NCBI GenBank assembly: GCA_965202665.1
Contig: OZ241841.1
Coordinates: 1,996,189 to 2,060,188, forward strand
Direction of reading: 5' to 3'
Origin: Candidatus Spongiisociaceae bacterium
Lineage (GTDB): Bacteria; Actinomycetota; Acidimicrobiia; Spongiisociales; Spongiisociaceae
DNA length: 64,000 nucleotides
Shown: positions 2,779 through 35,925 of the stretch, piece by piece
Numbering within the stretch: position 1 is the first letter of the stretch
How the letters are laid out: every line of letters begins with the position of its first letter
Program-made: the position numbers and the translations under genes
The notes under the pieces: model-generated
Told to the model about the DNA's origin: nothing
Database searches by the model: none
What the model saw: only the letters and a program-made list of their open reading frames with translations

Positions 2779-5511
2779 ATGGGAACCGAACCAGCGGAAA
2801 TAGGCGGCGGCGCCGAGGCGGGGGCGGACCCGTTGGAGGTGGTGGACGCCGAACTGCGGGCCGACATCCGGCGGTTGGGCCGGCAATTGGGCGACACGCT
2901 GGTCCGCCAGCACGGGGAGGACCTGTTGGAGTCGGTGGAGGCGGTCCGCACCCTTTCCCGGCGGTTGCGCCTCGCCGAATCGGAGGTTTCCCGGGAGCTG
3001 ACCGAACTGCTGGCCGCCGCCGATCCGGAACGGGCCAGCCTGTTGGTGGGGGCCTTTACCGTCTACTTCCATTTGGCCAATGTGACCGAGCAGGTCCATC
3101 GGGTGGAGGATATGAACGCCGAGGGGGACACCTCCGAACGGCGTTTTGCGGAAACCTTGCGCGCCCTGGTGGAGGGCGGGGTTGCGGCGGACGAAGTAGC
3201 GGCCTTGGTTAACCGCACCGCCCTCAAGCCGGTGTTCACCGCCCACCCCACTGAAGCCACACGCCGTTCGGTGTTGGAAAAGTTGGCCGAAATCGCCCAA
3301 GCCACCGCCGCCCGCAATCGCGAGCGGGCCACTCCCTCCGACCGGGCCCGCATCGATCGGCGGATCAACGAACTGTTGGAGGCCGTGTGGCAGACCGACG
3401 AGATTCGCGCCCGCCGCCCCGATCCGATCGACGAGGCCCGGTTTGTCCGTTACTACTTGGATCAGACCATCCGCGAGGCGATGCCCGCCTTGCTGGATTC
3501 CATCGCGGCCGGGATGGGGGCCATCGGAGGGGAGCTGGCCCCCGCCCACTCCCCAATTAGGTTCGGGTCATGGGTGGGCGGCGACCGGGACGGAAATCCC
3601 AATGTGACCCCGGAGATGACCGAAGCGGTGTTGCTCCAGCAACGCCGGGAATCACTGGAAATCCTCCAAGACCAGGTGCGGGAGTTGGCAAGTCAGATGA
3701 GCGTCGGTTCGCAAGTGGCGGGGGCGCCCGCCGAGATGCGCCAGTTCATCGCCCGCCACCAATCCGACTTCGCCGAAGAGTTGGCTGCCGGGGATCCGGA
3801 TCAGCCCTACCGCCTGGCCTGCTCCGTCATCTTCCAGCGGTTGCGGGAGGCCCGGGACGGGGGTCGGCGCGGCTACCGCAGTCCGGGGGAGATGCAGGCC
3901 GATTTGGCTGCGCTGGATGCGTCGTTGCGGGCCAACAAAGGTGAGTTGCTGGCCGAGGGACGGTTGGCCCGGTTGCGGCGGACGGTGGATATGATCGGGT
4001 TCCACTTGGCCGCCTTGGACATCCGCCAGCACACCGACAGCCACCACGATGCGGTGGCCGCCCTCGCCGCCCCCCTCGGCGTTGATTACGCCGCCGCCGA
4101 CCGCGCCGCCCGTATCGCTTACCTGTCCAAGGAGTTGGACAGCCCCCGCCCGCTGGCCCCGCCCGGCCGGGAAGACGTTCCGGAGGCCCTGGCCCTGTTT
4201 GAAACGTTGCGCCGATGCCTGGATGAGTTGGGCGATGAGGTGGTGGACTCCTACATTATTTCCATGACCGCCGGCCCGGACGATGTGCTGGCCGCGGTGG
4301 TTCTGGCCCGGGAGGTGGGGTTGGTGGACTTGGACCAGGGCGTTGCCCGGCTGGACTTCGTTCCCCTGTTTGAAACCATCGACGACCTGCGTTCCCTGGG
4401 CGAAACCCTTACCGCCCTGTTTGCCATTCCCGCCTACCGGAGGCTGGTGGAGGCGCGGGGCGGGGTGCAGGAGGTGATGGTCGGCTACTCCGACTCCAAC
4501 AAAGACGGCGGAATAACCACTTCGCAATGGGAGATTTACAAGGCGTTGCAGGCGATTCGGGATGTTTCCGAAGCGACCGGGGTGCGGGTGGAGGTGTTTC
4601 ACGGCCGGGGCGGTTCCATCGGCAGGGGGGGCGGTCCCACCCACGCCGCCATTCTCAGCCAGCCGGACGGGGTGTTGGACGGGGTGGTCAAATTCACCGA
4701 ACAAGGCGAGGTGATCGCCGACAAATACGGGTTGCCGGAGCTGGCCGTTCAGAACCTGGATTTGGCCCTGTCGGCTTTGGTGGAGGCCTCGGCGGGCGGC
4801 TCCGCTCCTCCGGCCGACCCGGCGGACGCCGGCCGCTGGAGCCAAATAATGGACCTGATGTCGGAGGCCGCCTATCGGGCCTACCGCGACTTCGCGCAGA
4901 CCCCCGGAATGGTGGAATATTTCGTTTCTTCCACTCCGGTGGAGGAGTTGGCCAGTCTGAACATCGGCTCCCGTCCCGCCCGCCGGGTGGAAGGCGGGGG
5001 GGATGTGGCCGACCTGCGGGCCATCCCCTGGGTGTTCGGTTGGACCCAGTCCCGCCAGATCATCCCCGGTTGGTTCGGGGTGGGGGCCGGGTTGGAGGCG
5101 GTGCGGGAAGCCGGATACGGGGAGGAGGCCTCCCGGATGTACCGGGAGTGGCCTTTTTTCCGGATGTTCGTTTCCAATGTGGAGATGACCTTGGTCAAAA
5201 CCGATCTGGGGATCGCCCGCCATTACGTAAACAACCTGACCCCCCCCGAACACCGGGGCTTGCTGGAGGTGATCTCCGCCGAGCATCGTCGCACCGTTTC
5301 CGGTTTGACGGCGGTGACCGGAGCGGAATTGTTGGCCGACCGCCCCCTCCTGCGGCGCACTTTGACCGTGCGGGACGCCTACCTGGATCCCCTGAACGTG
5401 CTTCAGGTGGAGTTGCTGTCGCGCACCCGGGCGGGCGAAGCCGACAAACACCAGCGGGCCCTGTCGCTGACCATCAACGGCATCGCCGCCGGAATGCGCA
5501 ACACCGGCTGA
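2779..5511 (+). CDS. ppc: phosphoenolpyruvate carboxylase
   Basis: The 910-aa translation has hallmark Ppc motifs ([33 protein letters not shown]-terminal [11 protein letters not shown]). Confidence 0.95.
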
Positions 5512-5531
5512 CCCGCGCCGGTCAGGTTTTA
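5508..5531 (+). terminator. hairpin terminator at the ppc stop, between convergent genes
   Basis: CTGACC-CGCGCC-GGTCAG is followed by GTTTTAAAG. It overlaps the ppc stop and the stop of the convergent gene. Confidence 0.45.
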
Positions 5532-7056
5532 AAGTAAACCGCCGTCCGCCGGGACCCTTCCATCCGCAGTCGGCCTTGGTCCCGTAACCGCCGTAGCAGG
5601 TGGGTGGCTCTGGTGGGGTCAATCAGGCACAATTCGGCTACTTCGCTCCGAGTTATGGAGCCGTTGGCCTCCACATAGTTCATCACCAGCCGTTCCCGTC
5701 TGGCCCACCTGCTGGCCCGCTGGTTTAAGCCAGTCCCAGATTCAACTGGATGGATTTGGGGCAACGGCGCTGTTGGGCCTTGGAACTGGTATTCATTTCT
5801 GGCCTCGTAAAATTCCATCAGATCCGACAGGGGAAACCGTTGGCCGTTGCGGCTCCCCTCCCTAAGTTGCCGGACCATTTGCTTGTCGGCCAATCCGGGG
5901 GCGACGCGGGCTACAACCTGGCGTGGGTCGCTACCGCCGTAATCGGGCGGCGGGCGCCCCAGCAACAGCTGTCCCTCAAAAATACGAGCGATGCCCCGTC
6001 CGGTGCGTTCCACCAGGCCGGCCCCTTTGAAAGCATCGACCAGCCGGGGATTGCGCGCCCGGGGAGGAGCGATTATTAGATTGGCGAGGGTTATCCCCTC
6101 CGGAAAGCCGCCGGGGTTGGAGACCGTTAGCGCGCCGTCGCTGATCTGCACCAGCGTCATTCCCTGATCCGCGTAGTCGCGATGGATGAGGGCGTTGGCG
6201 ATCAGTTCGCGGATGGTTACTTCGGCGAAATGAGGCAAACCGATGCGCTGGGAATCGAGATCCATTTCTTCTTCGGAGTTGCGGGCCCGCACCCGGTCGG
6301 ATATTTCCGCCATTGCCTTGAGCAACGGGATGCGCCGTATCTCATTGACCCGTACCTGCAGATGATCCAGCTCTTGAAAGCCGACTTCGTAGGCGGGCAG
6401 ATGTTTGGCGATGGCCTTTTCTTTGCCGAATAACAACAAAGCCCCTACCGTGATGTTTTCCTCCGAGTCGGTGAGGTTCAGGGCTTGCAGAAGGTCATGG
6501 TCGGAGAGACTGGTTAGGGTTTTGTCGCCGTCTGATTCCGCCATCTCCCGGAAACGGGAAAATTCGGCATCGGAAAGATCGCTCTTGGTCGCCGCAGATA
6601 AAGTTACGCTGGAAAAATCCAGCACGCCGATGCTGCCCGCTCGCCCCACCACTTATGGGGCCGCATAGGAAGACACTCCGGTTGCCCGTGTATGTCCAGC
6701 GTTCGGCGTAGGAACTTGCCGGACTTGGTGGAAACAACATCCTGTCCAACCGGGACCTTAACGGCGATCACTTCCTTGCCGTTGATGGGTACCACCTGTA
6801 CGGCGGCATCTACCGCTGGTTCGGTGCGGCTGGCGATCAACGCTTGCAGTCGCTCTGGATCTGTGTGCCTGCCGTGACGAGGTTCAGCTCCGGTGATATT
6901 TCCTTGGTCGTCAACCCCGACCAGAAGCCAGCCTCCGCGTCCGTTGGCTAAACAGACCACCGATTCCACTAGATCCTTGTCGTTTGCGCGACTTTTGAAC
7001 TCGACGTTGAGCGTCTCGCCTTCGGAAACCAGGCCCTGGAGAGTTGTAGTGTCCAT
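5522..7056 (-). pseudogene. AlbA_2 (Schlafen-like) + HATPase_c_4 + C-terminal wHTH putative regulator (RecG-like family), interrupted by a frameshift near 6640..6655
   Basis: Track ORFs 6604..7056 (AlbA_2 N-domain: ETLNVEFKS...VVCLANGRGGWLLVGVDD) and 5522..6652 (ATPase-like plus wHTH) overlap by about 50 nt in different frames. The total span is not a multiple of 3. A join of ...PMRPH|VVGRAGSIGVLDF restores a typical family member. Confidence 0.7.
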
Positions 7057-22397: not shown

Positions 22398-23671
22398 GCA
22401 TGACCGAAGAGCGGCCGCTCAGCCTTTCCCAGCCGGGGATGCTGCCCCGTTACCGGTGGATACTGTACGGGTTGAGCGGGATTATGTTGCTGGCGGTGAC
22501 CCAGCAGTTCGCCGCCCTGCCCACTGAAGATCTGACCTCCAGCGGCACCTGGTCCATCGCTTTGGCTTGGTCGGTGCCCATTTTGCTGGCCGGCCTGGGC
22601 GGCATGTTCTCCGAACGGGCCGGGATCGTCAACATCGGACTGGAGGGGATGTTGATTCTCGGCACCTGGTTCGGGGCTTACGGAACGGTGGTGGCCGGGC
22701 CGTGGGCGGGGATGCTGATGGCGGGTATCGCCGGGGCGGTGGGCGGACTGATCATGGCCGCGGCCGCGGTCGGATTCAACGTGGATCATATTATCGCCGG
22801 GGTGGCCATCAACCTGATGGCCCCCGGTTTGACCCGCTTCCTGTCCGATGTGCATTTCTCCGACCGGGGCGGCTCCATTACCCAGTCGCCGGTCATCTCC
22901 GGGGTGAGCGATTTCACCTTGCCCATCCTGGCGGGCGGAACCATCCTCGGATGGCGGAGCCCGGACCTGTTGGGGGCGATCGAGCGGTCGGGCTGGTTTT
23001 TCATCTCCGACTTTGCTGGCGTCCTGCGCGGGTTTGTTTTTCAGATGTCCTGGTTCACCCTGCTGGTCTACCTGTTCGTGCCCTTCTCCATTTTCCTGTT
23101 ATGGCGCACCAAGTTCGGCCTGCGGTTGCGCAGTTGCGGCGAGCATCCGCAGGCGGCCGATTCCCTGGGGGTCAACGTTTACAAGTACAAGTACTACGGG
23201 GTGGTGATCAGCGGGGCCCTGGCCGGGGCGGGGGGCGGCTTTCTGGCCATTCAGCTGTCCGGCGTCTACAAGGAGGGGCAGACGCAGGGCAAAGGGTTCA
23301 TCGGTTTGGCCACCATGATTTTCGGCAACTGGAACCCGTTGGGCACTGCCCGGGGGGCCATCCTGTTCGGGTTCACGGAGACCCTGCGCTTGCGGGATCC
23401 CAACGCGGCCCACGGGCTGTTGTTGCTGGTGGTGATCTCGGTGGGTCTTTTAATCCTGTGGCGCATCCTCCGCAAACGGGGCGTGGGAACCTGGCAGTTG
23501 GCGATTGTGGCCATCGCCGTCGGATACTGGTATTTCAACTCCACCGGGGTGCCCAACCAGTTGCCGGCCATCACCCCCCACATCGTGGTGCTGGTGGTTC
23601 TCCTGTTCGCCACCTCCCGATTGCGTCCGCCCGCCTCCGCCGGCCTGCCCTACCGCAAGGGCGAAGATTAG
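22394..23671 (+). CDS. ABC transporter permease (BMP-family system, YufQ-like)
   Basis: A 425-aa polytopic protein with an ATGA overlap to the upstream permease gene. Confidence 0.8.
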   Translation: MSMTEERPLSLSQPGMLPRYRWILYGLSGIMLLAVTQQFAALPTEDLTSSGTWSIALAWSVPILLAGLGGMFSERAGIVNIGLEGMLILGTWFGAYGTVVAGPWAGMLMAGIAGAVGGLIMAAAAVGFNVDHIIAGVAINLMAPGLTRFLSDVHFSDRGGSITQSPVISGVSDFTLPILAGGTILGWRSPDLLGAIERSGWFFISDFAGVLRGFVFQMSWFTLLVYLFVPFSIFLLWRTKFGLRLRSCGEHPQAADSLGVNVYKYKYYGVVISGALAGAGGGFLAIQLSGVYKEGQTQGKGFIGLATMIFGNWNPLGTARGAILFGFTETLRLRDPNAAHGLLLLVVISVGLLILWRILRKRGVGTWQLAIVAIAVGYWYFNSTGVPNQLPAITPHIVVLVVLLFATSRLRPPASAGLPYRKGED

Positions 23672-23691
23672 CTGTTCCGCGAGGTCCCGGC

Positions 23692-24531
23692 ATGGTTGAG
23701 ATCATCCCCCACATCGACGATATCGGGGTCACGTTGGGGTCGGTGCGGGCCATGGAGGAGCTGGCCGGCCGGGGGTTTGTCACTTCCGGTTCGGTTATGG
23801 CCCCCTGTCCCTGGTTGGCGGAGGCGGCCGCCCTGTCCGCCCGCCGCCCGGAGCTGGATCTGGGTCTGCATCTCACGCTCACCTCCGAGTCGGCGCGTAT
23901 GCGCTGGCGGCCCCTTTCCACCCGCTCCCCCGCCTCCGGGTTGATCGACGGGGACGGGTTCATGTGGCCCACGGTTCCGCAGTTGCGGGCCAACGCCCAT
24001 CCGGGGGCGGTGGAGGAGGAACTGGAAGCCCAGATTGAGGCGGCCCGCCGGGCGGGGATGGAGCCCACCCATCTGGATCATCATATGGGAGCGGCTTTCG
24101 CTCCCGAGTTCGCCGCTCTGACCGTGCGCATCGCCCGTCGCCGCCGGTTGCCGGTTTTGATACCGGCCGACCCGGCCGCCTACGCGGGGGTTCTGGAGTG
24201 GGGGGAGGCCGATATGCGGGTTCTGGAGGAGGTGCGGGACCGGGAGCAAGCCGCCGGCGCGGTGTTGGCGGACCGGTTTTTGATGGGTCTGGCCTTCCAA
24301 GACGAGGAGCCCGACGCGGTTTATCGGCGTTTTTTGGCTGAAGCGGAGGGTTTGACTTTTCTGTCGTTGCACTGCGACTCCCCCGGCGAGGTTACGGCCG
24401 TCCACCCCAACGACGCCGGCTGGCGCATCGCCGAATACGAGTGGGTCAAAGCGGGGGCCGCCCCTCTGCCCGACGGAGTCCGCCTGACGGACTTCCGGTC
24501 GCTGTCCGCCCGCTGGCGTTGGCCTGCCTAA
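23692..24531 (+). CDS. ChbG/HpnK (YdjC) family carbohydrate deacetylase
   Basis: The ATG is at 23692. MVEIIPHIDDIGVT...LGLHLTLTSE...THLDHHMG matches the YdjC family. Only the last 279 codons of track ORF 22567..24531 are coding. Confidence 0.8.
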   Translation: MVEIIPHIDDIGVTLGSVRAMEELAGRGFVTSGSVMAPCPWLAEAAALSARRPELDLGLHLTLTSESARMRWRPLSTRSPASGLIDGDGFMWPTVPQLRANAHPGAVEEELEAQIEAARRAGMEPTHLDHHMGAAFAPEFAALTVRIARRRRLPVLIPADPAAYAGVLEWGEADMRVLEEVRDREQAAGAVLADRFLMGLAFQDEEPDAVYRRFLAEAEGLTFLSLHCDSPGEVTAVHPNDAGWRIAEYEWVKAGAAPLPDGVRLTDFRSLSARWRWPA

Positions 24532-24570
24532 AGGTTCCGAGAACAATGCAAACCCGCCCGAAATTTCGGA

Positions 24571-24785
24571 GTTTGACAGAGTTTATGCGTTTCGCATAAG
24601 GTTGATAAGGTGGGGTTAGGTTTGTATAACTCTCCATCAGCGAGGAAGTTTGACAGAGTTTATGCGTTTCGCATAAGGTTGATAAGGTGGGGTTAGGTTT
24701 GTATAACTCTCCATCAGCGAGGAAGTTTGACAGAGTTTATGCGTTTCGCATAAGGTTGATAAAGTATAGTAAGGTCTGAATAACT
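24571..24785 (+). repeat. 77-bp tandem direct repeat, 2 identical copies plus a third diverging after ~38 nt
   Basis: Copies start at 24571, 24648 and 24725. Each contains the palindrome TTATGCG-TTT-CGCATAA (24583, 24660, 24737). Each also has the promoter-like pairs TTGACA-N18-TAAGGT and TTGATA-N17-TATAAC. Confidence 0.9.
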
Positions 24786-25970
24786 ATGGACGTAAACGAA
24801 AATCCGTATCGCCCCGGAGCCGGTACCAGGCCTCCGGTGCTGAGAGGACGCGATGATCTATTCGCCCGCTTCGAGGGCATAGTAGAACATGCACTCCGCG
24901 GGCGGCCCGGTAAAAGCTTGGTGTTGCTGGGCTTGCGCGGCGTCGGCAAGACCGTGTTGTTGAACCAGTTCGTCAGTCTCGCCGAGCAGAAGGGTTACAG
25001 CACGGGACATATGGAGGCCGATGAATCCCAGGACCTGCGTTTGTTGATGGCCATGCGCCTGCGTCGGATTCTGCTGGCCTTGCAAAGACGACGCCCGTCG
25101 CAAAAAATTATGCGGGCGTTGCGGATACTGAAAGCCTTCAGCTACCAGTTGCCGGATGGTTCCCTTGTCACTTTGGATGTGGAGGCGTTGCGGGGTTACG
25201 CCGATTCCGGCGTTATCGGCGATGACCTAACGGATTTGCTGGTCGCCGTAGGGGAGGCGGCCGCAGGCCAGGAGCGAGGCGTGCTGTTGGCGGTAGATGA
25301 AATTCAGTATTTGGCGAAAGAGGAGTTGGGAGGGTTGATTGCCGCTATTCACCGTACCACCCAACTGGATCTTCCGGTGGTGCTGGTGGGAGCCGGCCTG
25401 CCCCAGTTGCCCAAATTGGCGGGTGAGGCTAAATCTTACTCGGAACGGTTGTTTGAATTTCCCTTTGTCAACTCTTTGTCGGAGGAAGACGCCGCGGCCG
25501 CCATCGCCCTGCCGGCGGCGCCGTTGGGAGTGGAGTTTGCGGACGCCGCCTTGGAAGCCATCTTCGCCAACTCAAAAGGCTATCCGTATTTTCTGCAGGG
25601 TTGGGGTTATTACGTATGGAATGAGGCCGGCGTCTCTCCGGTTGGTCCGGAGGCGGTGCGGGCCGCGGCCGAGTTGGTCGTCAAGCATCTGGATCGCGAT
25701 TTCTATGCGATGCGCTTTGATCGCTTGACTCTCAAAGAAAAAACATATTTACGGACTATGGCCGAATTCAAATCCAGCAAGATACGCTCCGGGGATATCG
25801 CCGCCCGCCTCGGGGTTCCGGTGGAGAACGCCGCTCCCCGGCGCAGCGCCTTGATCCGGAAGGGCATGATTTACAGTCCCGGGTACGGCGAGACGGCTTT
25901 CACCGTCCCCATGTTTGACGATTTTTTGCGGCGGCAGATGCCGGATTTTCAGGCGGCGACGGGCGATTGA
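24786..25970 (+). CDS. orphan AAA-type ATPase with C-terminal winged-helix domain (AAA_16/Arch_ATPase-like, Orc1/Cdc6-like architecture)
   Basis: NPYRPGAGTRPPVLRGRD...LLGLRGVGKTVLL is the Walker A region and LLAVDEIQYL is Walker B. The C-terminal LTLKEKTYLRTMAEF..SGDIAARLGV...RSALIRKGMIYSP is wHTH-like. A/T-ending codons are more frequent than in neighbouring genes. Confidence 0.75.
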   Translation: MDVNENPYRPGAGTRPPVLRGRDDLFARFEGIVEHALRGRPGKSLVLLGLRGVGKTVLLNQFVSLAEQKGYSTGHMEADESQDLRLLMAMRLRRILLALQRRRPSQKIMRALRILKAFSYQLPDGSLVTLDVEALRGYADSGVIGDDLTDLLVAVGEAAAGQERGVLLAVDEIQYLAKEELGGLIAAIHRTTQLDLPVVLVGAGLPQLPKLAGEAKSYSERLFEFPFVNSLSEEDAAAAIALPAAPLGVEFADAALEAIFANSKGYPYFLQGWGYYVWNEAGVSPVGPEAVRAAAELVVKHLDRDFYAMRFDRLTLKEKTYLRTMAEFKSSKIRSGDIAARLGVPVENAAPRRSALIRKGMIYSPGYGETAFTVPMFDDFLRRQMPDFQAATGD

Positions 25971-25983
25971 CGGCTGGTTGGAT

Positions 25984-26012
25984 TTGGCGGCCGGCCGGGT
26001 ATGGCGTATAAT
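25984..26012 (+). promoter_or_regulatory. putative rplJL promoter
   Basis: TTGGCG, a 17-nt spacer, then TATAAT (26007..26012). A ~145-nt GC-rich structured leader follows, possibly an L10-leader-type autoregulatory RNA (not verified). Confidence 0.45.
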
Positions 26013-26160
26013 GCTTCCCTTGCGTCCGCTTGCGGGCGGGCGCGCGACCGTAGACAGCCGGCGCCGTAAAGCGTAAGCGGCCCGTTCGGGTCCGCCTGCC
26101 GAGGTCCTTCCCGGTCTCCGGGCGGCTGTCGCGGGTGGAGCAGAGCCAAGGAGAGACCAA

Positions 26161-26859
26161 ATGCCCCGACCGGACAAGGTCCAGGCAGTCGAAGATATCA
26201 AGCAACGGTTCCAGAATGCCTCAGCCGCTTTCCTGACTGAATATCGCGGGTTGCCGGTGGCCCGCCAGCAGGAACTGCGCGGGGCCCTGCACGACGCCGG
26301 GGCCGGATACAAGGTGCTGAAAATGTCCCTTACCCGCCGGGCGTTGGACGAGCTGGGGATGGAGGGGCTAGATGAATGGCTGACCGGCCCCACCGCCATC
26401 GCGTTCACCGGCGATGATCCCGTTCCGGCCGCCCGCGCCCTAGCCGACTTCGCCAAGGCGAACGACGCCTTTTTAATTAAGGGGGGATGGTTCAACGGGG
26501 AGGCCATCCCGTCGGAAGTGGTTTCCCGGCTGGCCAACATCGACTCCCGCGAGGCGCTGTTGGCCAAAACGGCGGGCGCTTTTAAAGGGCCCCTCAACAA
26601 GATGGCGGCGGTTATGGGTTCTTTCACCCGAGAGGCCGCCTCCCTGTTCTCCGCCCTGTTGGAACGCAAAGAGGAGATACCGTCGGAGGCCGCCCCCGTC
26701 GCCGGCGGCTCCGAAGAGCCGGCTCCGCCGGCCCAGGATGCCGCCCCGGCCCCCGATGTTGATTCCGAGTCCGTTCCTACCGCCGCGGCCGGAGAAGACG
26801 ACGAAGCGGACGGGGCGGAGGGCGCCGACCCCGATCAGATCACCCAAGACAATCAATAA
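26161..26859 (+). CDS. rplJ: 50S ribosomal protein L10 with ~55-aa acidic Pro/Ala-rich C-terminal tail
   Basis: [17 protein letters not shown]...FLTEYRGL is canonical L10. AAGGAGAG lies upstream. Confidence 0.95.
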
Positions 26860-26875
26860 CGCGAAAGGACAAGCA

Positions 26876-27262
26876 ATGGCCAAAATGACCACCGACGAAC
26901 TGCTGGGCGTGTTCGAGGAGATGACCGTCCTGGAGTTGAAAGAGTTCCTAGACGCCTTCGAGGAGCGCTTCGATGTCACCGCGGCCGCCCCGGTGGCGAT
27001 GGCCGCCATGCCCGCCGGCGACGGCGCGGGCGCGGCCGAAGAAGAGGAAAAAGACGAGTTCGACGTGGTGCTCCTCGGCCCCGGCGACCAAAAGATCCAG
27101 GTGATCAAAGAAGTTCGGGCCCTCACCGGCTTGGGATTGAAGGAGGCCAAAGCGGTGGTGGACGACGCTCCGGGCGCCGTCTTGGAAGGGGCCTCCAAGG
27201 AGGAAGCGGAGGCGGCCCGGGACAAGATCGCCGCCGTGGGCGGGCAGGTGGAAATCCGATAA
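26876..27262 (+). CDS. rplL: 50S ribosomal protein L7/L12
   Basis: [24 protein letters not shown]...[12 protein letters not shown]... Confidence 0.95.
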
Positions 27263-27284
27263 CCGCCGCCGTCCGGCCCCCGAT

Positions 27285-27314
27285 TTGACAAGCCGCGCCG
27301 GCATCTGTTACGAT
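27285..27314 (+). promoter_or_regulatory. putative rpoBC promoter
   Basis: TTGACA (27285..27290), an 18-nt spacer, then TGt-TACGAT (extended -10, 27306..27314). A leader of about 250 nt follows. Confidence 0.55.
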
Positions 27315-27440
27315 GGCGACACACAAGTAGATCCGGTTTCCCCGTCGCCCGCCCGCAGGCGCGCGGGTCCGGGTTGCAATAACAGCCCGCCCCAAGCCGG
27401 GCTCCCCGATCCGGTATCGGCGGCTTGCGGCGATGGAAAC

Positions 27441-27470
27441 GGCAGGTACGGGTTGCGCCCGCCTGTCTTT
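27441..27470 (+). terminator. terminator-like hairpin inside the rpoB leader (possible attenuator)
   Basis: GGCAGGtaCGGGttgcgCCCGCCTGTC is followed by TTTGCTG. Confidence 0.3.
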
Positions 27471-27570
27471 GCTGTGCCAGATTAAGTCGGCCGACGTTCG
27501 ATACCGGGCCCCGTCGGATGCCGGGCGGCTTGCCGGTTGCTATAGGGGGATAACCCCAAGGAGGATGCTC

Positions 27571-30500
27571 TTGGCCGCTATCCGCGTCGCCGACCGCCTG
27601 TCGTTTTCCCAAATCCGGGAGGTGGTTCCCCTGCCGGATCTGCTTTCCGTGCAACACGACTCCTTCCGCCACTTCCTGGAAGAGGGGCTGGGGCGGATTT
27701 TCGAGCAGATCTCCCCGATAGAGGACTTTTCGGGGATGCTGGCCTTGGAAATCGGCGATCATCAGTTCGGCCCCGCCCCCCTCACCCCCGATGAGGCCAA
27801 GATGCAGGACGCCAACTACGCCCGCCCGTTGCGGTTCAAAGCCCGGTTCATCAACCGCAACACCGGGGAGATCAAGGAACAGGAGGTGTTCCTAGGCGAT
27901 TTCCCGATGATGACCGAAAAGGGCACGTTCATCATCAACGGCACCGAGCGGGTGGTGGTCAGCCAGTTGGTGCGCTCGCCCGGCATCTACTACGACCGGT
28001 CGGTGGACAAATCCACGCTCAAAGATTTGTACAGCAACAAGGTGATTCCCGGCCGAGGGGCCTGGCTGGAAATGGACATCGACAAGAAGAACACGGTGGG
28101 GGTGCGGGTGGACCGCAAACGCCGTCAGTACGTCACCGCCTTCCTGCGCGCCCTCGGTTTGGCGGAGAGCGATGAGCAGATACTGGCAATGTTCGATGGG
28201 GCGGGGTCCATCCGCAACACGTTGGAGCAGGACCCGATCACCGACCCGGAGGAGGCCCTGCTGGATCTCTACAAAAAACTCCGTCCCGGCGAGCCTTCCA
28301 CGGTGGAGTCGGCCCGGGGGCTGGTCTCCCAGCTGTTCAAAAACGAAAAACGCTACGACCTGACTCCGGTGGGCCGTTACAAGGTGAATCAGAAGTTCCG
28401 CAATCCCGATGACTTCGCCGCCGGGGACAACCTCCTCCAAGACGAGGACATTATCGACTCCATCAAATACCTGGTGTGCCTGCATGCCGGAGAAGCCTCC
28501 ATGACTTCGCAGTTGGGGATGCAGGTGGGCGTGGGGGTGGACGACATCGACCATTTCGGCAATCGCCGGGTGCGCACCGTGGGGGAGCTGATCCAGAACC
28601 AGTTGCGCATGGGTCTGGCCCGCTTGGAGCGGCAGGCCCGGGAGCGGATGAGCACCCAGGAGAGCGATGCTATCACCCCCCAGTCCCTGGTCAACATCCG
28701 TCCGGTGGTGGGGGCCATCAAAGAGTTCTTCGGCTCCAGCCAGTTGAGCCAGCTGATGGATCAGCCCAACCCGCTGGCCGGACTCACCCATCGCCGCCGC
28801 CTGTCGGCCCTGGGACCGGGAGGTTTGACCCGGGAGCGGGCCGGGTTCGAGGTGCGGGACGTGCATCCTTCCCACTATGGCCGGATGTGCCCCATCGAGA
28901 CCCCGGAGGGCCCCAACATCGGATTGATCGGTTCGTTGGCCACCTACGCCCGCATCAACCCGCACGGCTTCATCGAGACTCCCTACCACAAGGTGACCGA
29001 CCGCAAGGTCAGCACCAAAGTGGAGTACCTGACCGCCTCCGAGGAGGAGCAGTACGTAATCGCCCAGGCCAACGCCCCTTTGGACACCGACCGGGTTTTT
29101 GTAAGAGATCGGGTGCTGGTGCGCCGCCGGGACGATGATGTTGCTTTTGTCAGCCCGGACGAGGTGGACTATATGGATGTGTCCCCCAAGCAGATCGTGT
29201 CGGTGGCCACCTCCCTCATCCCTTTCTTGGAGCACGATGACGCCAACCGGGCCCTGATGGGTTCCAACATGCAACGGCAGGCGGTTCCCTTGGTGCGCAC
29301 CGAATCCCCCCTGGTCGGCACCGGGGTGGAGTATTGGGCGGCCCGGGACTCGGGGGAGATGTTGCTCTCCCCGGCGGCGGGGGAAGTGACGTTGGTGTCG
29401 GGGGATGAAGTTCACATCAAGGAGGAAGGCGCCAACCGCAAGCATCGGCTCCGGTTGCGCAAGTTCGAACGTTCCAACCAGGGGACTTCGGTTAATCAGA
29501 AGCCGGTCGTGACGGTAGGTCAGAAGGTCAAAAAAGACGACATTCTGGCGGACGGACCCTCCACCGCCGCCGGAGAGCTGGCTTTGGGCAAGAACCTGTT
29601 GACCGCCTTTATGCCCTGGAAGGGGCACAACTTCGAAGATGCCATAGTGGTCAGCGAACGGCTGGTGAAAGACGATGTTTTAACTTCGGTGCACATCGAC
29701 GAGCATGAGATCGAGGCCCGCGACACCCGGGCTGGCGACGAGGAGATTACCCGCGATATTCCCAACGTGGCCGAGGAGTCGTTGCGCAACCTGGACGAAG
29801 ACGGGATCATCCGGGTGGGGTCGGTGGTGGAGGCGGGCGACTACCTGGTGGGCAAGGTGGCCCCCAAGGGCGACTCGGAGATGACGCCCGAGGAGCGCCT
29901 GTTGCGTGCCATCTTCGGGGAGAAAGCCCGCGAGGTACGGGATGTGTCGTTGCGGGTTCCGCACGGCGAGTCGGGCAAGGTGATCGGGGTGCAGGTGTTC
30001 AGCCGGGACCAAGGGGCTGAGAACCTGAACGCTGGGGTCAGCCAGAAGGTGCGGGTCTACGTAGCCAGCCAGCGCAAAATCTCCGAAGGGGACAAGCTGG
30101 CCGGGCGGCACGGCAACAAGGGGGTCATCGCCAAGGTTCTGCCCGAAGAGGACATGCCCTTTTTGGCCGACGGCACCCCGGTGGATATTGTCCTGTCCCC
30201 GCTGGGAGTTCCCTCCCGGATGAACTTGGGCCAGGTGCTGGAAACCCATCTGGGGTGGGCGGCCGCCCAGGGTTGGCGCCCGTTCGATCCCCAAACCGGG
30301 CGTCCGGTGGAAAGCAACGGCGGGCCTGGCAAAAAACCGGAGAAGCCCAGCGACGGTTCGCCCCGCTGGTCCCGGTTGGCCACCCCGGTGTTCGACGGGG
30401 CCAAAGAAGAGCAGATCACCAACGTGATCGCCAACTCCCTGCCCAACCGGGACGGGGAGCGGCTGGTGAACGAAGACGGGAAAGCGATACTGTACGACGG

Positions 30501-30993
30501 CCAGACCGGCAGGCCGTTCGACACCCCGGTCACGGTCGGCTACCTGTACCTGCTGAAACTGGCCCACCTGGTGGATCACAAGATTCACGCCCGCTCCACC
30601 GGCCCCTACTCCATGATCACCCAGCAACCGATTGGGGGGAAGGCCCAGTTCGGCGGACAACGGTTCGGGGAAATGGAGGTGTGGGCCCTGGAAGCCTACG
30701 GGGCCGCCTACGCCTTGCAGGAGTTGCTCACCATCAAATCGGACGATGTGTTGGGACGGGTCAAGGTGTACGAGGCGATCGTGAAAGGCGACAACATCCC
30801 CGAACCGAGCATTCCCGAATCTTTCAAAGTGCTCATCAAGGAAATGCAGAGCCTGTGCCTGAACGTGGAACTGTTGTCGGTGGGCGAAGAGGTGGACCTG
30901 CAGGAGCTGAGCGAAAAAAGCGACGAAGCGTACCGCACGGCTGAGGATCTGGGCATCGATATGTCCCGTCCTGAGAAGCGGGAGGAAAACTGA
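27571..30993 (+). CDS. rpoB: DNA-directed RNA polymerase subunit beta
   Basis: TTG 27571 lies 6 nt after AAGGAGG. ATG 27565 directly abuts the SD and is a less likely alternative. The translation is canonical RpoB ([17 protein letters not shown]; [13 protein letters not shown]). Confidence 0.95.
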
Positions 30994-31068: not shown

Positions 31069-34000
31069 GTGCGCGAGCTGTTCGATGAACTGAAAATTGG
31101 TTTGGCGTCCTCCGATCAGGTGCGGTCCTGGTCGTTCGGGGAGGTGAAGAAGCCGGAGACCATCAACTACCGCAGCTTGAAGCCGGAGAAGGACGGGCTG
31201 TTCGACGAGCGCATTTTCGGTCCGCAGAAGGACTGGGAATGCTACTGCGGCAAATACAAGCGTTTTCGCTACCGGGGCATCGTGTGCGAAAAATGCGGCG
31301 TGGAGGTGACCCGCAAGGATGTGCGCCGGGATCGGATGGGCCACATCGACCTGGCCGCCCCGGTCACCCATATCTGGTTTTTCAAAGGAGTCCCCTCCCG
31401 GTTGGGGTATCTGCTGGACATGTCCCCCAAAAACCTGGAGATGATCATCTACTTTGCGGCCTACGTGATCACGGAAGTGGACGAAGGCAAACGGATGGTG
31501 GATCTGCCCGACCTGGAGGAGCAGATGCGGGCCGAGTTGGAAATTGTGGGGGAGGAGTTGGAGGAGTGGCGGTTGGAGCGGCTGTCCCGGTTGGAGAAGC
31601 AGGTGGAGCAGATGGAGGAGGCGGGGGCCAAGCTGGCGGAGGTGGCCACCGTGCGCCGCGAGGCGGAGCGGGAAATCAAGGATCGGGAGGAGAAAGCGGA
31701 GAAGGAACGCGAGTTGATCAAGGAGAGTTTTGCGGAATTTCGCGAGTTGCGTCCCAAAGATCTGGTGGAGCGGGAGGATTTGTGGAGGGAGATGCACGAA
31801 CGCTACTCGGCCTACTTCGATGGGGGAATGGGGGCGGAGGCGGTGAAGAAATTGCTGTCCAAGGTGGATTTGGACGCCGAGATGGAGGAGTTGCGGGAAG
31901 GTTTGCAATCATCGTCGGCGCAACGGAAACTGCGCTCCGGGCAACGTGTGAAGGTGGTGAAGCCCTTCTGGGAGGGCAAGCATTCGCCGGAGAGCATGAT
32001 TATAGAGGCGGTTCCGGTCATCCCGCCTGAGTTGCGACCCATGGTGCAGTTGGACGGGGGGCGCTTCGCCACCTCCGACCTGAATGACCTGTACCGGCGG
32101 GTGATTAACCGCAACAATCGCCTGAAGCGGCTGTTGGGGTTGAACGCCCCCGAGATCATCATCAACAACGAGAAGCGCATGTTGCAGGAGGCGGTGGACG
32201 CCCTGTTCGACAACGGGCGGCGGGGGCGGGCGGTGCCCGGTACCGGCAATCGTCCCTTGAAGTCTTTGACCGACATGTTGAAGGGCAAAGCGGGGCGGTT
32301 CCGGCAGAACCTGCTGGGGAAGCGAGTGGATTATTCCGGCCGGTCGGTGATCGTGGTGGGCCCGCAGTTGAAGTTGCATCAGTGCGGTTTGCCCAAGGTG
32401 ATGGCGTTGGAGTTGTTCAAGCCGTTCGTGATGAAGCGGCTGGTGGACCGGGATTTGGCGGCCGGCATCAAGGCGGCCAAGCGGATGGTGGAGCGGCAAC
32501 GTCCGCAGGTGTGGGACGTGTTGCGGGAGGTGATACAGGATCATCCGGTGTTGCTCAACCGGGCCCCCACTTTGCACCGGCTGGGGATTCAAGCTTTCGA
32601 ACCGTTGCTGGTGGAAGGCAAAGCCATACAGATTCATCCCCTGGTGTGCGAGGCTTTCAACGCCGACTTCGACGGGGATCAGATGGCGGTGCATCTCCCC
32701 TTGTCTCCGGAGGCGCAGGCCGAGGCGCGGGTGCTGATGCTGTCCACCAACAACGTACGTTCCCCGGCCAGCGGCCATCCCATCGTGTCCCCCTCCCAGG
32801 ACATGGTCATCGGCCTCTACTACCTGTCGGCGAATATCAAAAAAGAAGGCGCCTTGGGGACAGGCCGGTACTTTGCCGATCTGCCGGAGGCGTTGATGGC
32901 CTATGACTTGGGTGAGTTGGAAGTGCACGCCCCGATCAAAATTCGGATGGGCGATATGGCGGGCGACCCGCAGGTGCACGCCGAGCTGAAGGATCTGATC
33001 GGGTATCTGATCACCGACCAACCGGTGGATGGCCAGGTTCCGATGGACACCACTTTGGGCAAGGCCTTACTCAACCAAGCCCTGCCCGCCGATTTCCCGT
33101 TGATCGACGCTCCTTTGTTGAAGAGCGGCATCAAAGACCTGCTCGCTGAGATCATCGACCGCTACGACAAGGCGGTGGTGCAACGCACTCTGGACGGGCT
33201 CAAGGATTTGGGTTTCGCCTTTTCCACCCAGGCGGGGCTCACCGTGGGTTTGAACGATGTGACCACCCCGCTCGACAAGCCGAAGATACTTAACGAGGCG
33301 GAGGACAGGGCGCAGAAGAAGGAACGAGAGTACCAGCAGGGGAGCATTACCGCCCAGGAACGGGATCAGGAGTTAGTGGAGATTTGGAGCGAAGCCACCG
33401 AAGAGTTAACCCAGAAGGTGCGCACTTCCCTGTCCGATCAGGACTTCAACCCCATTGATATGATGATGAGCTCCGGCGCCCGGGGCAACATCATGCAGGT
33501 GCGCCAGATAGCCGGTATTCGCGGCTTGGTGGCTAACAACCGCGGACGCATCATCCCCCGGCCCATCAGGTCTAATTTCCGAGAGGGGATGACTGTGCTG
33601 GAGTATTTCATGTCCACGCACGGGGCCCGCAAAGGTCTGACCGACACCGCTCTGAAAACCGCCGACGCTGGTTATCTGACCCGCCGCCTGGTGGATGTGT
33701 CCCAAGAGATTATCGTCTCCGAAGAGGAATCGGAGGATCGGGGCATCGACATCCGCGTACGGGATGCAAAAGGCGATACCCTCCCCGACTTGCGCAACCG
33801 CATCTACGGGCGGGTGTTGGCCGAAGATGTGAAAGTGGATTACAAGTTGCGTATCACCCGCCCCGGTGATTCCAACTTCGAAGCTGGCCAAACCGTGGAG
33901 TTCACGAAGTTTGCGTCCGTCAAACGGGAGTTGTTGGAGGCTGGCAAAAAACCGGCCGAAGGTCGGCCGACGGGAGGTAAAACGGCCCTTACCAAGGATG

Positions 34001-35925
34001 GCGTGGCTCTGGAGGCGGGGGCGGTGATTGACCGCAAGGTGATGGTGGAACTGCAGGCTATGCCGGAAGTCGACTCGGTGCGGGTGCGTTCCCCGCTCAC
34101 CGACGAGATCCGGCACGGCATCAGCCGCGCTTCCTACGGGCTGAGCATGTCCACCAACCAACTGGCGGAACCGGGCGAGGCGGTGGGGGTGATGGCCGCC
34201 CAGTCCATCGGCGAGCCGGGCACGCAGCTGACCATGCGCACCTTTCATACCGGGGGGGTGGCCGATGAAACGGATATCACCCACGGCCTGCCCCGGGTGG
34301 TGGAGTTGTTCGAAGCCCGCTCCCCCAAGGGAAAGGCCATCTTGGCCGAGGCCAGCGGAAAAGTGCGCATTGACGATGGTGAAGAGGGGGTGCGCGCTTT
34401 GGTAATCGAATCCCCCCGGAGCGGGGAAGTCAAATACCGCTTGTCCCCCAACGCCCGGTTGCGGCCCGGGGTGCGAGAGGGGGGTGAAGTCGCCGCCGGA
34501 GATCAACTTACCGAAGGGCCGTTGGATCCCAAAGAGGTGTGCCTCATCAGAGGAGTGCGGGCCTGTCAGCAGTATCTGGTGGATCAGGTGCAGGATGTGT
34601 ACCGCAACCAGGGGGTGGAGATTCACGACAAGCACATCGAGCTGATCGTGCGGCAGATGTTGCGCAAAGTGCGCATCATCGAGCCCAACGACACCGATTT
34701 TCTGCCCATGCAGATGGTGGATCAGGGAGAGTTCCGGGACACCAACCGGGAGTTGGCGGCCGCGGGCAAGCAACCGGCCGAGGGCCGTCCGGAGCTGATG
34801 GGGATCACCAAGGCCTCGCTGGCTACCGAGTCCTGGTTGTCGGCCGCATCCTTCCAGGAAACCAGCCGCGTGCTCACCGAGGCGGCCATCAACGGACGCT
34901 CCGACTACCTGCGGGGACTGAAGGAGAACGTGATCATCGGCAAGCTGATTCCGGCCGGCACCGGTTCCGATGAATACCAGAAACTCCAACCCGAGCTGTC
35001 CCAGGCGCAGATAACACCCCCCTTGACCGGAGCCGACTGGTTGGCCGTGCGGGAGATGGAAGTATTCACCGAAGAGGTCGCCGGTGAGGCCGAGGATAAG
35101 GCCGCCCAAGCCGAGGAGGCCCGGGCCAGGGCGGAGGAGAAAAAGGCGGAGGTGAACGCCGCCACTGACGATGCCGAGAAATATACTTTGAGGAGGGAAA
35201 GAGACGAAGAATATGAACGGGCCGCCCGCTATGACCGGGAGGCGGCCGAGGAGGAGGAGCGGGCCGCGGCCCGCAAGTTGGCCCATGCCCAAGCGAAGGC
35301 GGAGGAGGCCGAGGAAGCCGAAGCGGCCGCCCAGGAGAAAGAGTTGGAACAGGCTCGCAAAGAGGCGGAAAAGGCCCGGCAAGCGGTGGAGAAGGCCCGG
35401 GAGAAGGAAGACAAGGCCGCCAAAACGCGCCGGGAGAGGGCCGCCAAAGAGGCGCAAAAATGGAAGGATCGGGCACAGCGGGCATTGCGAGAGGCCGAAG
35501 GGAAGCAGAAGCAGGTGGCTGATAAAACGGAGCAGGCTAAAGCCGCGCTGGATATAAGCGCAAAGGTGGATTTGGCGCGGCAGGTCGTGTCTGAATCCGA
35601 GAAGGTGATCCAAGGCGTACGGGAAGCGAGGAAAGCGGCAACGGTAGCCCAGGAGGCTGAAGTTAAGGCTGAGCTGGAAGATACAGAAGCGCCGCAGGTA
35701 ATAGAGGACGCCGAACAGGTGATCCTAGATGTGGAGCAAAAGGTTCAGGAGTTGCGGGCCTCGCTGGATGCTCCCCAACAGGATGCGGGAGCTATTGACA
35801 GATCCCTCGACGAGAACCGCGAGTCCTTGACGAGGATGGCCGTTACCTTGCAGAAGTTCACCGACTGGTTGAAAAAAATCGGCGAGCTCGTCGCCGATGC
35901 CCTAAAGAAACTGCTGGGAGGGTAA
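31069..35925 (+). CDS. rpoC: DNA-directed RNA polymerase subunit beta-prime with ~290-aa C-terminal coiled-coil extension
   Basis: The GTG start follows AAAGGAG. Canonical RpoC motifs ([12 protein letters not shown]; GKLIPAGTG at about residue 1291) are followed by about 290 further residues rich in E/K/A/R, up to residue 1618. Confidence 0.95.

Follow-up and report, generated by a model that had tools for sequence, protein, structure and literature searches.

The 64-kb window analysed here (64,000 nt of contig OZ241841.1 from a Candidatus Spongiisociaceae bacterium; all positions are those of the window) carries a 77-nt tandem repeat directly in front of a gene for a 394-aa ATPase, which lies upstream of rplJ. 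Comparison with relatives and homologs of this locus (the L-numbered loci below) suggested that the repeat is probably the tandemly amplified promoter-operator of a solitary gene, whose product would be a sequence-specific DNA-binding nucleoside triphosphatase (NTPase) autoregulated via its own boxes. The reading is carried by the repeat itself, the fold of the protein, an array of phased short boxes that recurs throughout the family with constant spacing to the ATG, and the covariation of these boxes with the recognition helix, all of which were computed.

Structure of the tandem repeat

Tandem Repeats Finder called an array at 24570-24762 with a period of 77, 2.5 copies and 100% matches (score 386). 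The units started at 24571, 24648 and 24725, and the elements assigned to them were as follows.

24571..24647, plus strand: repeat unit 1, a distal copy of the entire promoter/operator (100% match in Tandem Repeats Finder), which aligns with the ATG-proximal unit over all 77 nt
24648..24724, plus strand: repeat unit 2, identical to unit 1
24725..24785, plus strand: repeat unit 3, ATG-proximal, the predicted functional promoter/operator, with the left element TTTGACAGAG, one inverted and four direct boxes
24583..24599, no strand: palindrome of unit 1, read as two family boxes in inverted orientation (CATAA / TTATG); boxes so oriented occur across the family
24660..24676, no strand: palindrome of unit 2, same sequence as that of unit 1
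24737..24753, no strand: palindrome of unit 3, same sequence as that of unit 1
24749..24755, plus strand: direct box 1, CATAAGG, whose ATAAG spans -36..-32 relative to the ATG; homologous to the family peak near -33..-31
24758..24764, plus strand: direct box 2, GATAAAG, homologous to the family peak at -25..-22
24768..24775, plus strand: direct box 3, AGTAAGGT, containing the predicted -10 hexamer TAAGGT (TANNNT; 24770-24775), 10 nt before the ATG
24778..24785, plus strand: direct box 4, GAATAACT, abutting the ATG, with no Shine-Dalgarno sequence evident

An exact 77-bp repeat in three copies had been described from the letters alone (the sequence-only reading). The unit starts and the identity of units 1 and 2 were reproduced, but the third copy was diverged, so that the exact repeat amounts to 2.5 copies. 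The first 38 nt of unit 3 were identical to units 1 and 2, and the remainder was diverged yet alignable through the start codon, with 21 of 39 positions identical (ATAACTCTCCA in units 1 and 2 versus ATAACTATGGA in unit 3). Unit 3 is a diverged full copy with the real ATG at 24786, not a truncated one. In units 1 and 2 the equivalent of the -10 was TTAGGT and that of the start codon was CTC, that is, both were decayed, and the first 38 nt were intact. The proximal unit was parsed as TTTGACAGAG-TTTATGCG-TTT-CGCATAAGG-TT-GATAAAG-TAT-AGTAAGGT-CT-GAATAACT-ATG. This architecture fits the family profile and was nearly superimposable on that of L018, for example, with two extra bases.

The palindrome TTATGCG-TTT-CGCATAA occurred three times (24583, 24660 and 24737), against 0.06 occurrences expected within 3 mismatches. 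It was present once per unit in an operator-like position, as had been noticed before, and is best taken as an inverted pair of the family box. The promoter-like hexamers noticed earlier, TTGACA-N18-TAAGGT and TTGATA-N17-TATAAC, were likewise present as read, but they fell below the threshold of a sigma-70 consensus scan. TAAGGT (24597) and TTGATA (24602) overlap direct boxes 1 and 2, and TATAAC corresponds to box 4. The better reading of TAAGGT, TTGATA and TATAAC is not as a stack of promoter elements but as additional occurrences of the family box (CATAAGG, GATAAGG and GTATAAC). In the proximal unit, TAAGGT at 24770-24775 is the predicted -10, and the transcript likely starts at the ATG or a few bases before it. 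No other phased RTAAR triple or box cluster was found within the 64-kb window.

The GC content was 0.41-0.49 over the repeat and about 0.65 around it, in agreement with the AT-richness remarked on earlier. Relatives close to the window sequence came only from ENA and Logan assemblies, and 26 nt of the 77-nt unit had no exact match in the JGI metagenome collection. Other candidate functions of the region were considered and rejected. Rfam gave no match at E up to 1 over 24000-27500, for a structured RNA or an rplJ leader; the palindrome formed only a modest 7-bp hairpin (z -2.1) with no T-run, which does not fit a terminator or riboswitch; and a mini-open reading frame within it (ATG CGT TTC GCA TAA) was not kept in the distal units of L090 and L004, which read TTTACG.

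Phased box array upstream of the ATPase family

The statistics of the cis architecture were obtained from 75-80 diverse homolog loci, in which 170 nt upstream were inspected. The upstream sequences displayed short motifs every 9-11 nt up to the ATG, with inverted copies before them. The 60 nt immediately preceding the ATG contained two inverted and three direct short boxes with a 10-nt phase and a fixed distance to the start codon. When 78 loci were aligned on the ATG, the profile showed peaks of TAA at -33..-31, ATAA at -25..-22 and TAA(G) at -14..-11, together with inverted TT(A) at -59/-58 and -49..-47; no conserved position was seen further upstream of the inverted boxes. Identity among the three phased decamers was 0.41, compared with 0.26 for random genomic sequence (p 5e-27) and 0.275 for composition-matched shuffles (p 4e-23), and it was highest at a period of 10 (0.43; 0.36 at 9 and 0.26 at 11). 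Comparison of the left half with the right half gave a mean of 5.0 reverse-complement 5-mer matches, versus 1.9 in controls (p 4e-16). The family could not be told from controls by exact 5-mer multiplicity (2.5 and 2.4), because the box copies are degenerate.

The boxes were also placed like promoter elements. TANNNT started at -14 in 35% of loci, at -24 in 24% and at -33 in 20%, versus about 0.5-0.6% in controls, and in the TATAA class (L040, L061, L062, L069 and L088) the last box was TATAAT exactly at -12..-7 from the A of the ATG. The start codon was ATG in 68 of 75 loci. A Shine-Dalgarno sequence was not seen in most loci; a simple count of such sequences is uninformative, with AAGG inside TAAGGT scoring as Shine-Dalgarno-like and control starts of open reading frames (ORFs) being unreliable. 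The promoter-ATG distance was thus fixed across phyla, which is the geometry that a leaderless mRNA requires. In the relatives which do have a Shine-Dalgarno leader (L005-L008 and L091), the array lay upstream and TTGTCC-N18-TATAAT followed its last unit, indicating that the array travels with the promoter and not with the ATG. By its fixed distance to the ATG in 75-80 homologs, the array is taken to be tied to expression of the ATPase gene, and each family member appears to bind such a phased short-box array directly against its own start codon.

Covariation of boxes and recognition helix

Box identity was higher within a locus (0.41) than between loci (0.29). Distances between boxes were then compared with distances between proteins, for which aa 343-362 were used as the recognition-helix segment. 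In the partial Mantel test, box distance followed the recognition helix given the NTPase domain (r=0.30, p=0.0005), and it did not follow the NTPase domain given the recognition helix (r=-0.04, p=0.76). At single positions, E347 was found with TAAG boxes in 22 of 27 loci and T347 with TATA boxes in 14 of 18, while R352 went with TAAG boxes in 20 of 22 loci and V352 with TATA boxes in 15 of 24. Two alphaproteobacterial members, only 47-49% identical overall, both had a VES(V/I)AP helix and GATAAG boxes. Covariation of this kind is the signature expected if the protein binds its own upstream array.

It might be supposed that the ATPase does not read the boxes, which would then be stacked -10-like or UP-like elements or sites of a host factor, kept by the constraint of a leaderless promoter. 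All box variants fit or approach TANNNT, and AT-rich phased tracts are, as a matter of general knowledge, common in strong promoters. However, the box sequence is specific to the locus and tracks the recognition helix after the NTPase domain has been controlled for, and the upstream inverted copies would have no role in a simple promoter. Moreover, the actinobacterial loci L070 and L071 lack the TAAG boxes of the actinobacterial loci L009-L031, and a host factor or sigma factor would not be expected to change along with the ATPase. Generic promoter boxes are therefore considered quite improbable as an explanation of the array.

Amplification of the proposed operator in the clade

Amplified arrays were found with periods of 77 nt in two copies (L001 and L004), 77 nt in three copies (window and L090), 58 nt in two copies (L091) and 47 nt in five copies (L005). 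The array of L090, a sister species whose ATPase and RpoB are 89% and 95% identical to those of the window, contained 2.9 units at 94% identity, and its distal units kept GGTAAGGT and read TTG at the old start. Across all units of the window and L090 the first 38 nt were invariant except for one T-to-C change, while the promoter-proximal half decayed. The distal units of both species shared derived states (GGTTTGTATAAC), so the first duplication predates their split; units were more alike within a genome than orthologous units were, which points to later duplication or conversion.

These data bear on whether the extra units do anything at all. They could be recent functionless duplicates which arose by unequal recombination or replication slippage and are now decaying, with the proximal unit alone acting as promoter/operator. 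A recent event would fit the 100% identity of units 1 and 2; copy number varies between near-identical strains (two in L001, at least three in L002; the window has three or more), and the promoter-proximal half of the distal units is left with neither -10 nor ATG. Against neutral decay, however, speak a 38-nt box half conserved across the units of two species while the other half diverges, the amplification in sister lineages of segments with periods of 77, 58 and 47 nt, each with the boxes in it, and a first duplication which is older than the split of the window species and L090 and has been retained. Slippage without function is on these grounds unlikely, although it deserves to be taken seriously.

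Boxes were also multiplied elsewhere in the family. L071 had, at about 3890-3965, a long perfect palindrome with three inverted and three direct GCTATACAT boxes, which was separated by about 45 nt from a GTG start; L057 had six (G)ATAAACT boxes in direct orientation at about 3925-3978; and four inverted CTTATTCGG boxes occurred in the upstream region of L046. Box amplification is thus not confined to the clade of the window. As judged from the compared loci, it is amplification of the whole operator unit that is special to this Acidimicrobiia-like clade.

The ATPase and its fold

The gene behind the array and the motifs of its product were placed as follows.

24786..25970, plus strand: gene for the 394-aa NTPase with winged helix (minimal STAND / PF01637-like)
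24930..24953, plus strand: Walker A, GLRGVGKT, aa 49-56; G49, G52, K55 and T56 invariant in both family alignments
25284..25301, plus strand: Walker B, LLAVDE, aa 167-172; L167, D171 and E172 invariant in both family alignments
25821..25859, plus strand: predicted recognition helix, aa 346-358, ENAAPRRSALIRK, helical in the model; residues 347 and 352 track the box type

The 394-aa protein was assigned to the AAA_16/AAA_22 P-loop ATPases (AAA_16, 45.9 bits; cut-off 32.6). It did not reach the gathering threshold of PF01637 (22.7 versus 33.2 bits), for which precomputed matches existed in few relatives and were weak where graded, so the protein is a structural relative and not a Pfam member. 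The Orc1/Cdc6 model TIGR02928 gave 19.3 bits against a cut-off of 181.3, and only over residues 16-69, the P-loop region. Other NCBIfam matches were sub-threshold P-loop hits as well (Hda, Orc1/Cdc6). No significant match was obtained in PADLOC-DB 2.0, where the best were mad8 (E 4e-4, no stretch passing alone) and PDC-S01 (E 7e-4). The phage protein family phrog_6841, which has no assigned function, was matched at E 1.4e-15. When the family profile was compared with the sequences of the PDB, no solved relative was found, and ORC4 appeared at E 0.57.

The AlphaFold2 model (pLDDT 78, pTM 0.65) had a core with a P-loop, a lid of helices and, at the C-terminus, a winged helix. In the fold search, 2QEN/2FNA and NB-ARC proteins were closest, with a match over the whole chain including the C-terminal winged helix, and Orc1/Cdc6 structures ranked below STAND proteins. 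The fold was also like that of NLR, Avs and RADAR RdrA NTPases. No sensor, repeat or other extra domain was seen in the 394 aa. Judged by the model, replication initiators are further from the protein than are the uncharacterised 'archaeal ATPases', and it is classed as a minimal STAND-like NTPase carrying a winged helix. An orphan AAA-type ATPase with a winged helix had been proposed before any profile or fold search, and the domain matches (AAA_16 above its cut-off), the modelled STAND-like fold and the lack of a recurrent neighbour agree with that proposal. The bias of the gene toward A/T-ending codons was confirmed as well, its GC content at third codon positions (GC3) being 0.69 versus 0.76-0.87 in the neighbours. 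Of the two roles suggested at that time, a tightly autoregulated STAND-like ATPase is the one favoured by the 2QEN/2FNA and NB-ARC fold and by phased promoter boxes which co-vary with the recognition helix.

Distribution and gene contexts of the family

A word-indexed search returned at least 8,000 matches, the best 120 of which were 58-99% identical and 384-417 aa long. In an exhaustive search of 1.84 billion representatives, 1,615 clusters (50% identity) were recovered at E <=1e-30; the best 150 of them were nearly all 385-410 aa, with practically no fusions. Members were distributed over most bacterial phyla, including Actinomycetota, Acidobacteriota, Chloroflexota, Pseudomonadota, Chlamydiota, Verrucomicrobiota and Nitrospirota, in a patchy manner and at 46-63% identity. 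Carriers include Microbacterium bandirmense, Hydrogenophaga pseudoflava and plasmids of Legionella pneumophila and Sphingobium, and OY970392.1, CP058706.1 and OZ241362.1 are complete genomes with a member. The hallmarks of the family were an invariant N-terminus, NPYRPGAGTxPP, and a conserved insert at 120-143. Databases name the members only 'AAA family ATPase' or 'ATP-binding protein', and no published description of the family was found in literature searches.

The family was detected on 118 of 72,556 plasmids, and among phage records on one unannotated phage-labelled contig. On three annotated plasmids the gene lay in accessory DNA with insertion sequence (IS), toxin-antitoxin, CBASS and PIN genes, and the one plasmid with replicon typing carried its own replicon, rep_cluster_522. 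Many chromosomal copies were situated among polysaccharide-synthesis or ordinary metabolic genes. Outside the clade of the window no conserved partner gene was found, either in an all-versus-all comparison of ORFs within 2.5 kb at 88 loci or in 80 diverse loci. With no recurrent neighbour and mutually unrelated contexts, the gene is a solitary, self-contained unit. Candidate ends of a mobile unit were rejected, as 8-mers of the locus itself were not enriched within 400 nt downstream (0.32 per locus versus 0.21-0.28 in controls). Three loci of Acidimicrobiia (L096, L097 and L098) carried two different homologs, 62% identical to the query, inside glycosyltransferase/methyltransferase/sulfotransferase clusters (cell-surface polysaccharide loci); this placement may be coincidence or may mark a preferred variable region.

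A minimal STAND NTPase could also act as a stand-alone sensor in defence or conflict, autorepressed to a very low level and triggered against foreign DNA or proteins, a role that would be compatible with autoregulation. Such a role would suit the fold likeness to NLR, Avs and RdrA proteins, the patchy spread, the plasmid copies near CBASS, PIN, toxin-antitoxin and IS genes, a GC3 lower than that of host genes and the match to phrog_6841. It is at odds with the absence of any effector domain, fusion partner or linked effector gene, with the uniform length of nearly all of the best 150 clusters, with the PADLOC result, and with the many copies among ordinary genes; the family is, besides, almost absent from phage records. 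A defence sensor is accordingly held to be distinctly unlikely.

Chromosomal position of the locus

In the window, an ABC transporter and a YdjC-type deacetylase were encoded upstream of the ATPase gene, and rplJ, rplL, rpoB and rpoC downstream. The RpoB of the window was 72-76% identical to that of named Acidimicrobiia metagenome-assembled genomes, which makes the host a deeply placed, Acidimicrobiia-like actinobacterium. All in-clade relatives (RpoB 85% to 100%) had the ATPase gene directly upstream of rplJ, and this adjacency held at ATPase identities of 99, 89 and 77% and RpoB identities of 95 and 86%. It was also kept where the upstream gene differed. In L005 an ISL3-family transposase (4293-5681) lay immediately 5' of the 47-nt array in five copies, replacing the ABC-transporter/ydjC neighbourhood; in L091 an extra ORF of 249 aa on the minus strand stood between ydjC and the ATPase gene and contained an unrelated 81-nt tandem repeat (4457-4964, 6.3 copies, 73% matches). 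Outside the clade, the closest lineages (RpoB identity about 75%) displayed the order secE-nusG-rplK-rplA-rplJ-rplL-rpoB with no ATPase gene. The nusG-rplK-rplA part of it is what the sequence-only reading had expected actinobacteria to have before rplJ. The adjacency within the clade and the canonical order outside it show that the ATPase gene marks a clade-specific breakpoint, which has been stable there since.

An origin of the locus from an integrated element, as once suggested for it, was not borne out, since no integrase or other element gene flanked the window locus and both gene and repeat were in stable synteny through the clade, an outcome that the sequence-only reading had itself named in advance as counting against it. 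The related proposal of an iteron-type replication origin holds that an Orc1/Cdc6-like initiator would act on boxes by its own gene and melt the AT-rich tract of a cryptic or integrated replicon. The order of an AAA+-like NTPase and a winged helix in about 390 aa is indeed that of archaeal Orc1/Cdc6, inverted and direct boxes lie beside the gene in an AT-rich stretch, and the family occurs on 118 plasmids. On the other hand, the protein fails TIGR02928 and is clearly closer in fold to 2QEN/2FNA and NB-ARC proteins, and the array, which overlaps -10-like hexamers, keeps a fixed register with the start codon. In 80 loci, genes for a helicase, a loader, an integrase or partition were not found to be linked; the plasmid copies were found among IS, toxin-antitoxin and defence-type genes, and the one typed plasmid has its own replicon. 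The chromosomal position is one and stable across the clade, and cumulative GC skew had no inflection at the repeat site. The repeated element is about 7 nt at a 10-nt phase, not an iteron of about 17-22 bp, the 77-nt unit is a duplicated promoter, and the protein is a P-loop NTPase, unlike Rep proteins made up of winged-helix domains. An origin of replication at this locus is consequently regarded as very improbable.

Several features of the neighbouring genes were recorded. The only sigma-70 site called in 24300-26300 belonged to rplJ and lay just past the stop codon of the ATPase gene.

25984-26012, plus strand: promoter-like site of rplJ itself, TTGGCG-17-TATAAT, called in the sigma-70 scan

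No terminator-like site was seen between the ATPase gene and rplJ. The leader of rplJ, about 148 nt long and within 25971-26160, had no match to any Rfam L10-leader model, and L10 (26161-26859) was 232 aa in the window and 188 to 284 aa among relatives. The RpoC of the window (31069-35925, plus strand) was 1618 aa, compared with 1614-1649 aa in the in-clade relatives L007, L090 and L091 and 1304-1332 aa in the nearest Acidimicrobiia (L089 and L092). The gap in length points to a lineage-specific insert in the beta' subunit, about 300 aa in size. Two ORFs appeared over-extended. The YdjC domain occupied residues 379-627 of the 654-aa ORF at 22567-24531 (plus strand) and the relatives were 285-289 aa, which places the real start near 23,670. 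The rpoB ORF at 27433-30993 (plus strand, 1186 aa) began ~46 codons before the start used in relatives (1140-1143 aa, covering 96%), and the true rpoB start is probably downstream of 27433.

Discussion

Autoregulation through the repeated operator could be achieved as follows. Each 77-nt unit combines TTTGACAGAG as its left element with an inverted box and with (C/G)ATAAG-type direct boxes at a spacing of 9-11 nt. In the proximal unit, TAAGGT of the third direct box would serve as the -10 of a leaderless or near-leaderless mRNA. The C-terminal winged helices of the protein would dock on boxes one helical turn apart and on the upstream inverted boxes, so that several protomers would line up on one face of the DNA, probably joined via their nucleotide-bound NTPase domains as in STAND/AAA+ proteins. 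Nucleotide-dependent contacts between these domains would make binding cooperative, and the complex would cover the region from -35 to +1 and thereby repress its own gene. The distal units, in which the 38-nt binding half was kept and the -10 and start codon were lost, would be added operator sites and not promoters; such sites would tighten, sharpen or buffer autoregulation. The steps that we infer are binding itself, repression as the sign of regulation, the dependence on nucleotide, where transcription starts and what the extra units do.

A number of points weigh against this reading. The sigma-70 consensus scan of 24300-26300 called no site in the repeat. In the window the predicted -10 (-16..-11) stands two bases more distant from the ATG than it does in the majority of homologs, which makes a short leader of ~3-5 nt no less likely than a start that is truly leaderless. 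For a rigid 10-nt register, just 37.5% of single loci exceeded the 95th percentile of controls, which makes the array a family-level signal that is often degenerate in individual loci. All box variants resemble -10 hexamers, and part of the box signal could be promoter-like sequence rather than operator. The covariation tests leave some shared ancestry (phylogenetic inertia) in. Many short-read contigs end inside the array, and the copy numbers given for relatives may be collapsed. Finally, the sole target detected for the putative regulator, in the 64-kb window, is its own array, and no biological role is explained by it.

A broader view of the family can be taken, in which it forms a self-contained module of an NTPase-winged-helix protein and its cognate phased array with a nucleotide-dependent oligomer, and autoregulation is merely the part that is visible. 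The oligomer might then serve as a sensor switch, form a complex for silencing or as a roadblock, or act as a cryptic initiator resembling Orc1 on its origin recognition boxes, and amplification of the array might be a fast-evolving form of tuning. We regard this view as rather unlikely and speculative.

If the favoured reading, an amplified operator of an autoregulated NTPase, holds, its interest goes beyond this locus. The repeat is a local curiosity, but it leads to a family with no name, curated model or solved structure. Leaderless mRNAs are rare in Proteobacteria, and the family has the leaderless-type geometry even there. The pairing of E347/R352 with TAAG and of T347/V352 with TATA would be a ready specificity code and could yield orthogonal repressor-operator pairs. 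The family may also serve as a minimal model for the coupling of nucleotide state to cooperative DNA binding in STAND- and AAA+-like NTPases, and the recurrent amplification of the whole operator in one clade offers a natural experiment on operator copy number.

The nearest folds among known proteins are those of the archaeal 'Walker-type ATPases' PAB2304 (2QEN) and SSO1545 (2FNA) of the PF01637 ATPase_2 family, but sequence identity to them is 14-16%. The present family differs from both in being bacterial and in having the invariant N-terminus NPYRPGAGTxPP, the insert at 120-143 and the self-operator array. To our knowledge, such an array has not been reported for archaeal proteins of the PAB2304/SSO1545 type. 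In STAND regulators, including MalT, nucleotide-dependent NTPase contacts make DNA binding cooperative. MalT of E. coli and the mycobacterial IniR have in common with the present protein a STAND-class NTPase joined to a DNA-binding domain. IniR was described as a bacterial STAND regulator with an SSO1545-like domain (PMC5760070). Unlike these regulators, the protein studied here has no sensor or repeat domain (domain III of MalT, TPR) and carries a winged helix instead of a LuxR-type helix-turn-helix; its boxes overlap its own core promoter, an arrangement suggestive of repression, while MalT and IniR are activators of other operons.

As for archaeal Orc1/Cdc6 and their origin recognition boxes, the family model failed and the structures were further away than 2QEN and NLR proteins; the boxes found here measure only about 7 nt, follow a 10-nt phase and keep a fixed register with the start codon, with no linked replication genes. 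A parallel in arrangement, by analogy only, is offered by parC/ParR of plasmid R1 and similar centromere-operators, in which phased 11-bp direct repeats flank and repress the par promoter. Common to both would be helically phased repeats over the promoter of the gene for the binding protein and cooperative coating of one face of the DNA. ParR, however, is a small ribbon-helix-helix protein which works with a separate actin-like ATPase, ParM, while NTPase and winged helix are here in one polypeptide, and the present gene is mostly chromosomal and has no partner gene. On the whole, the 77-nt repeat is best read as a lineage-specific amplification of a self-operator that is part of a large family of NTPase-winged-helix proteins with a highly regular promoter-operator layout, and the family belongs with the DNA-binding NTPases of the STAND/AAA+ type and with autoregulated operators.

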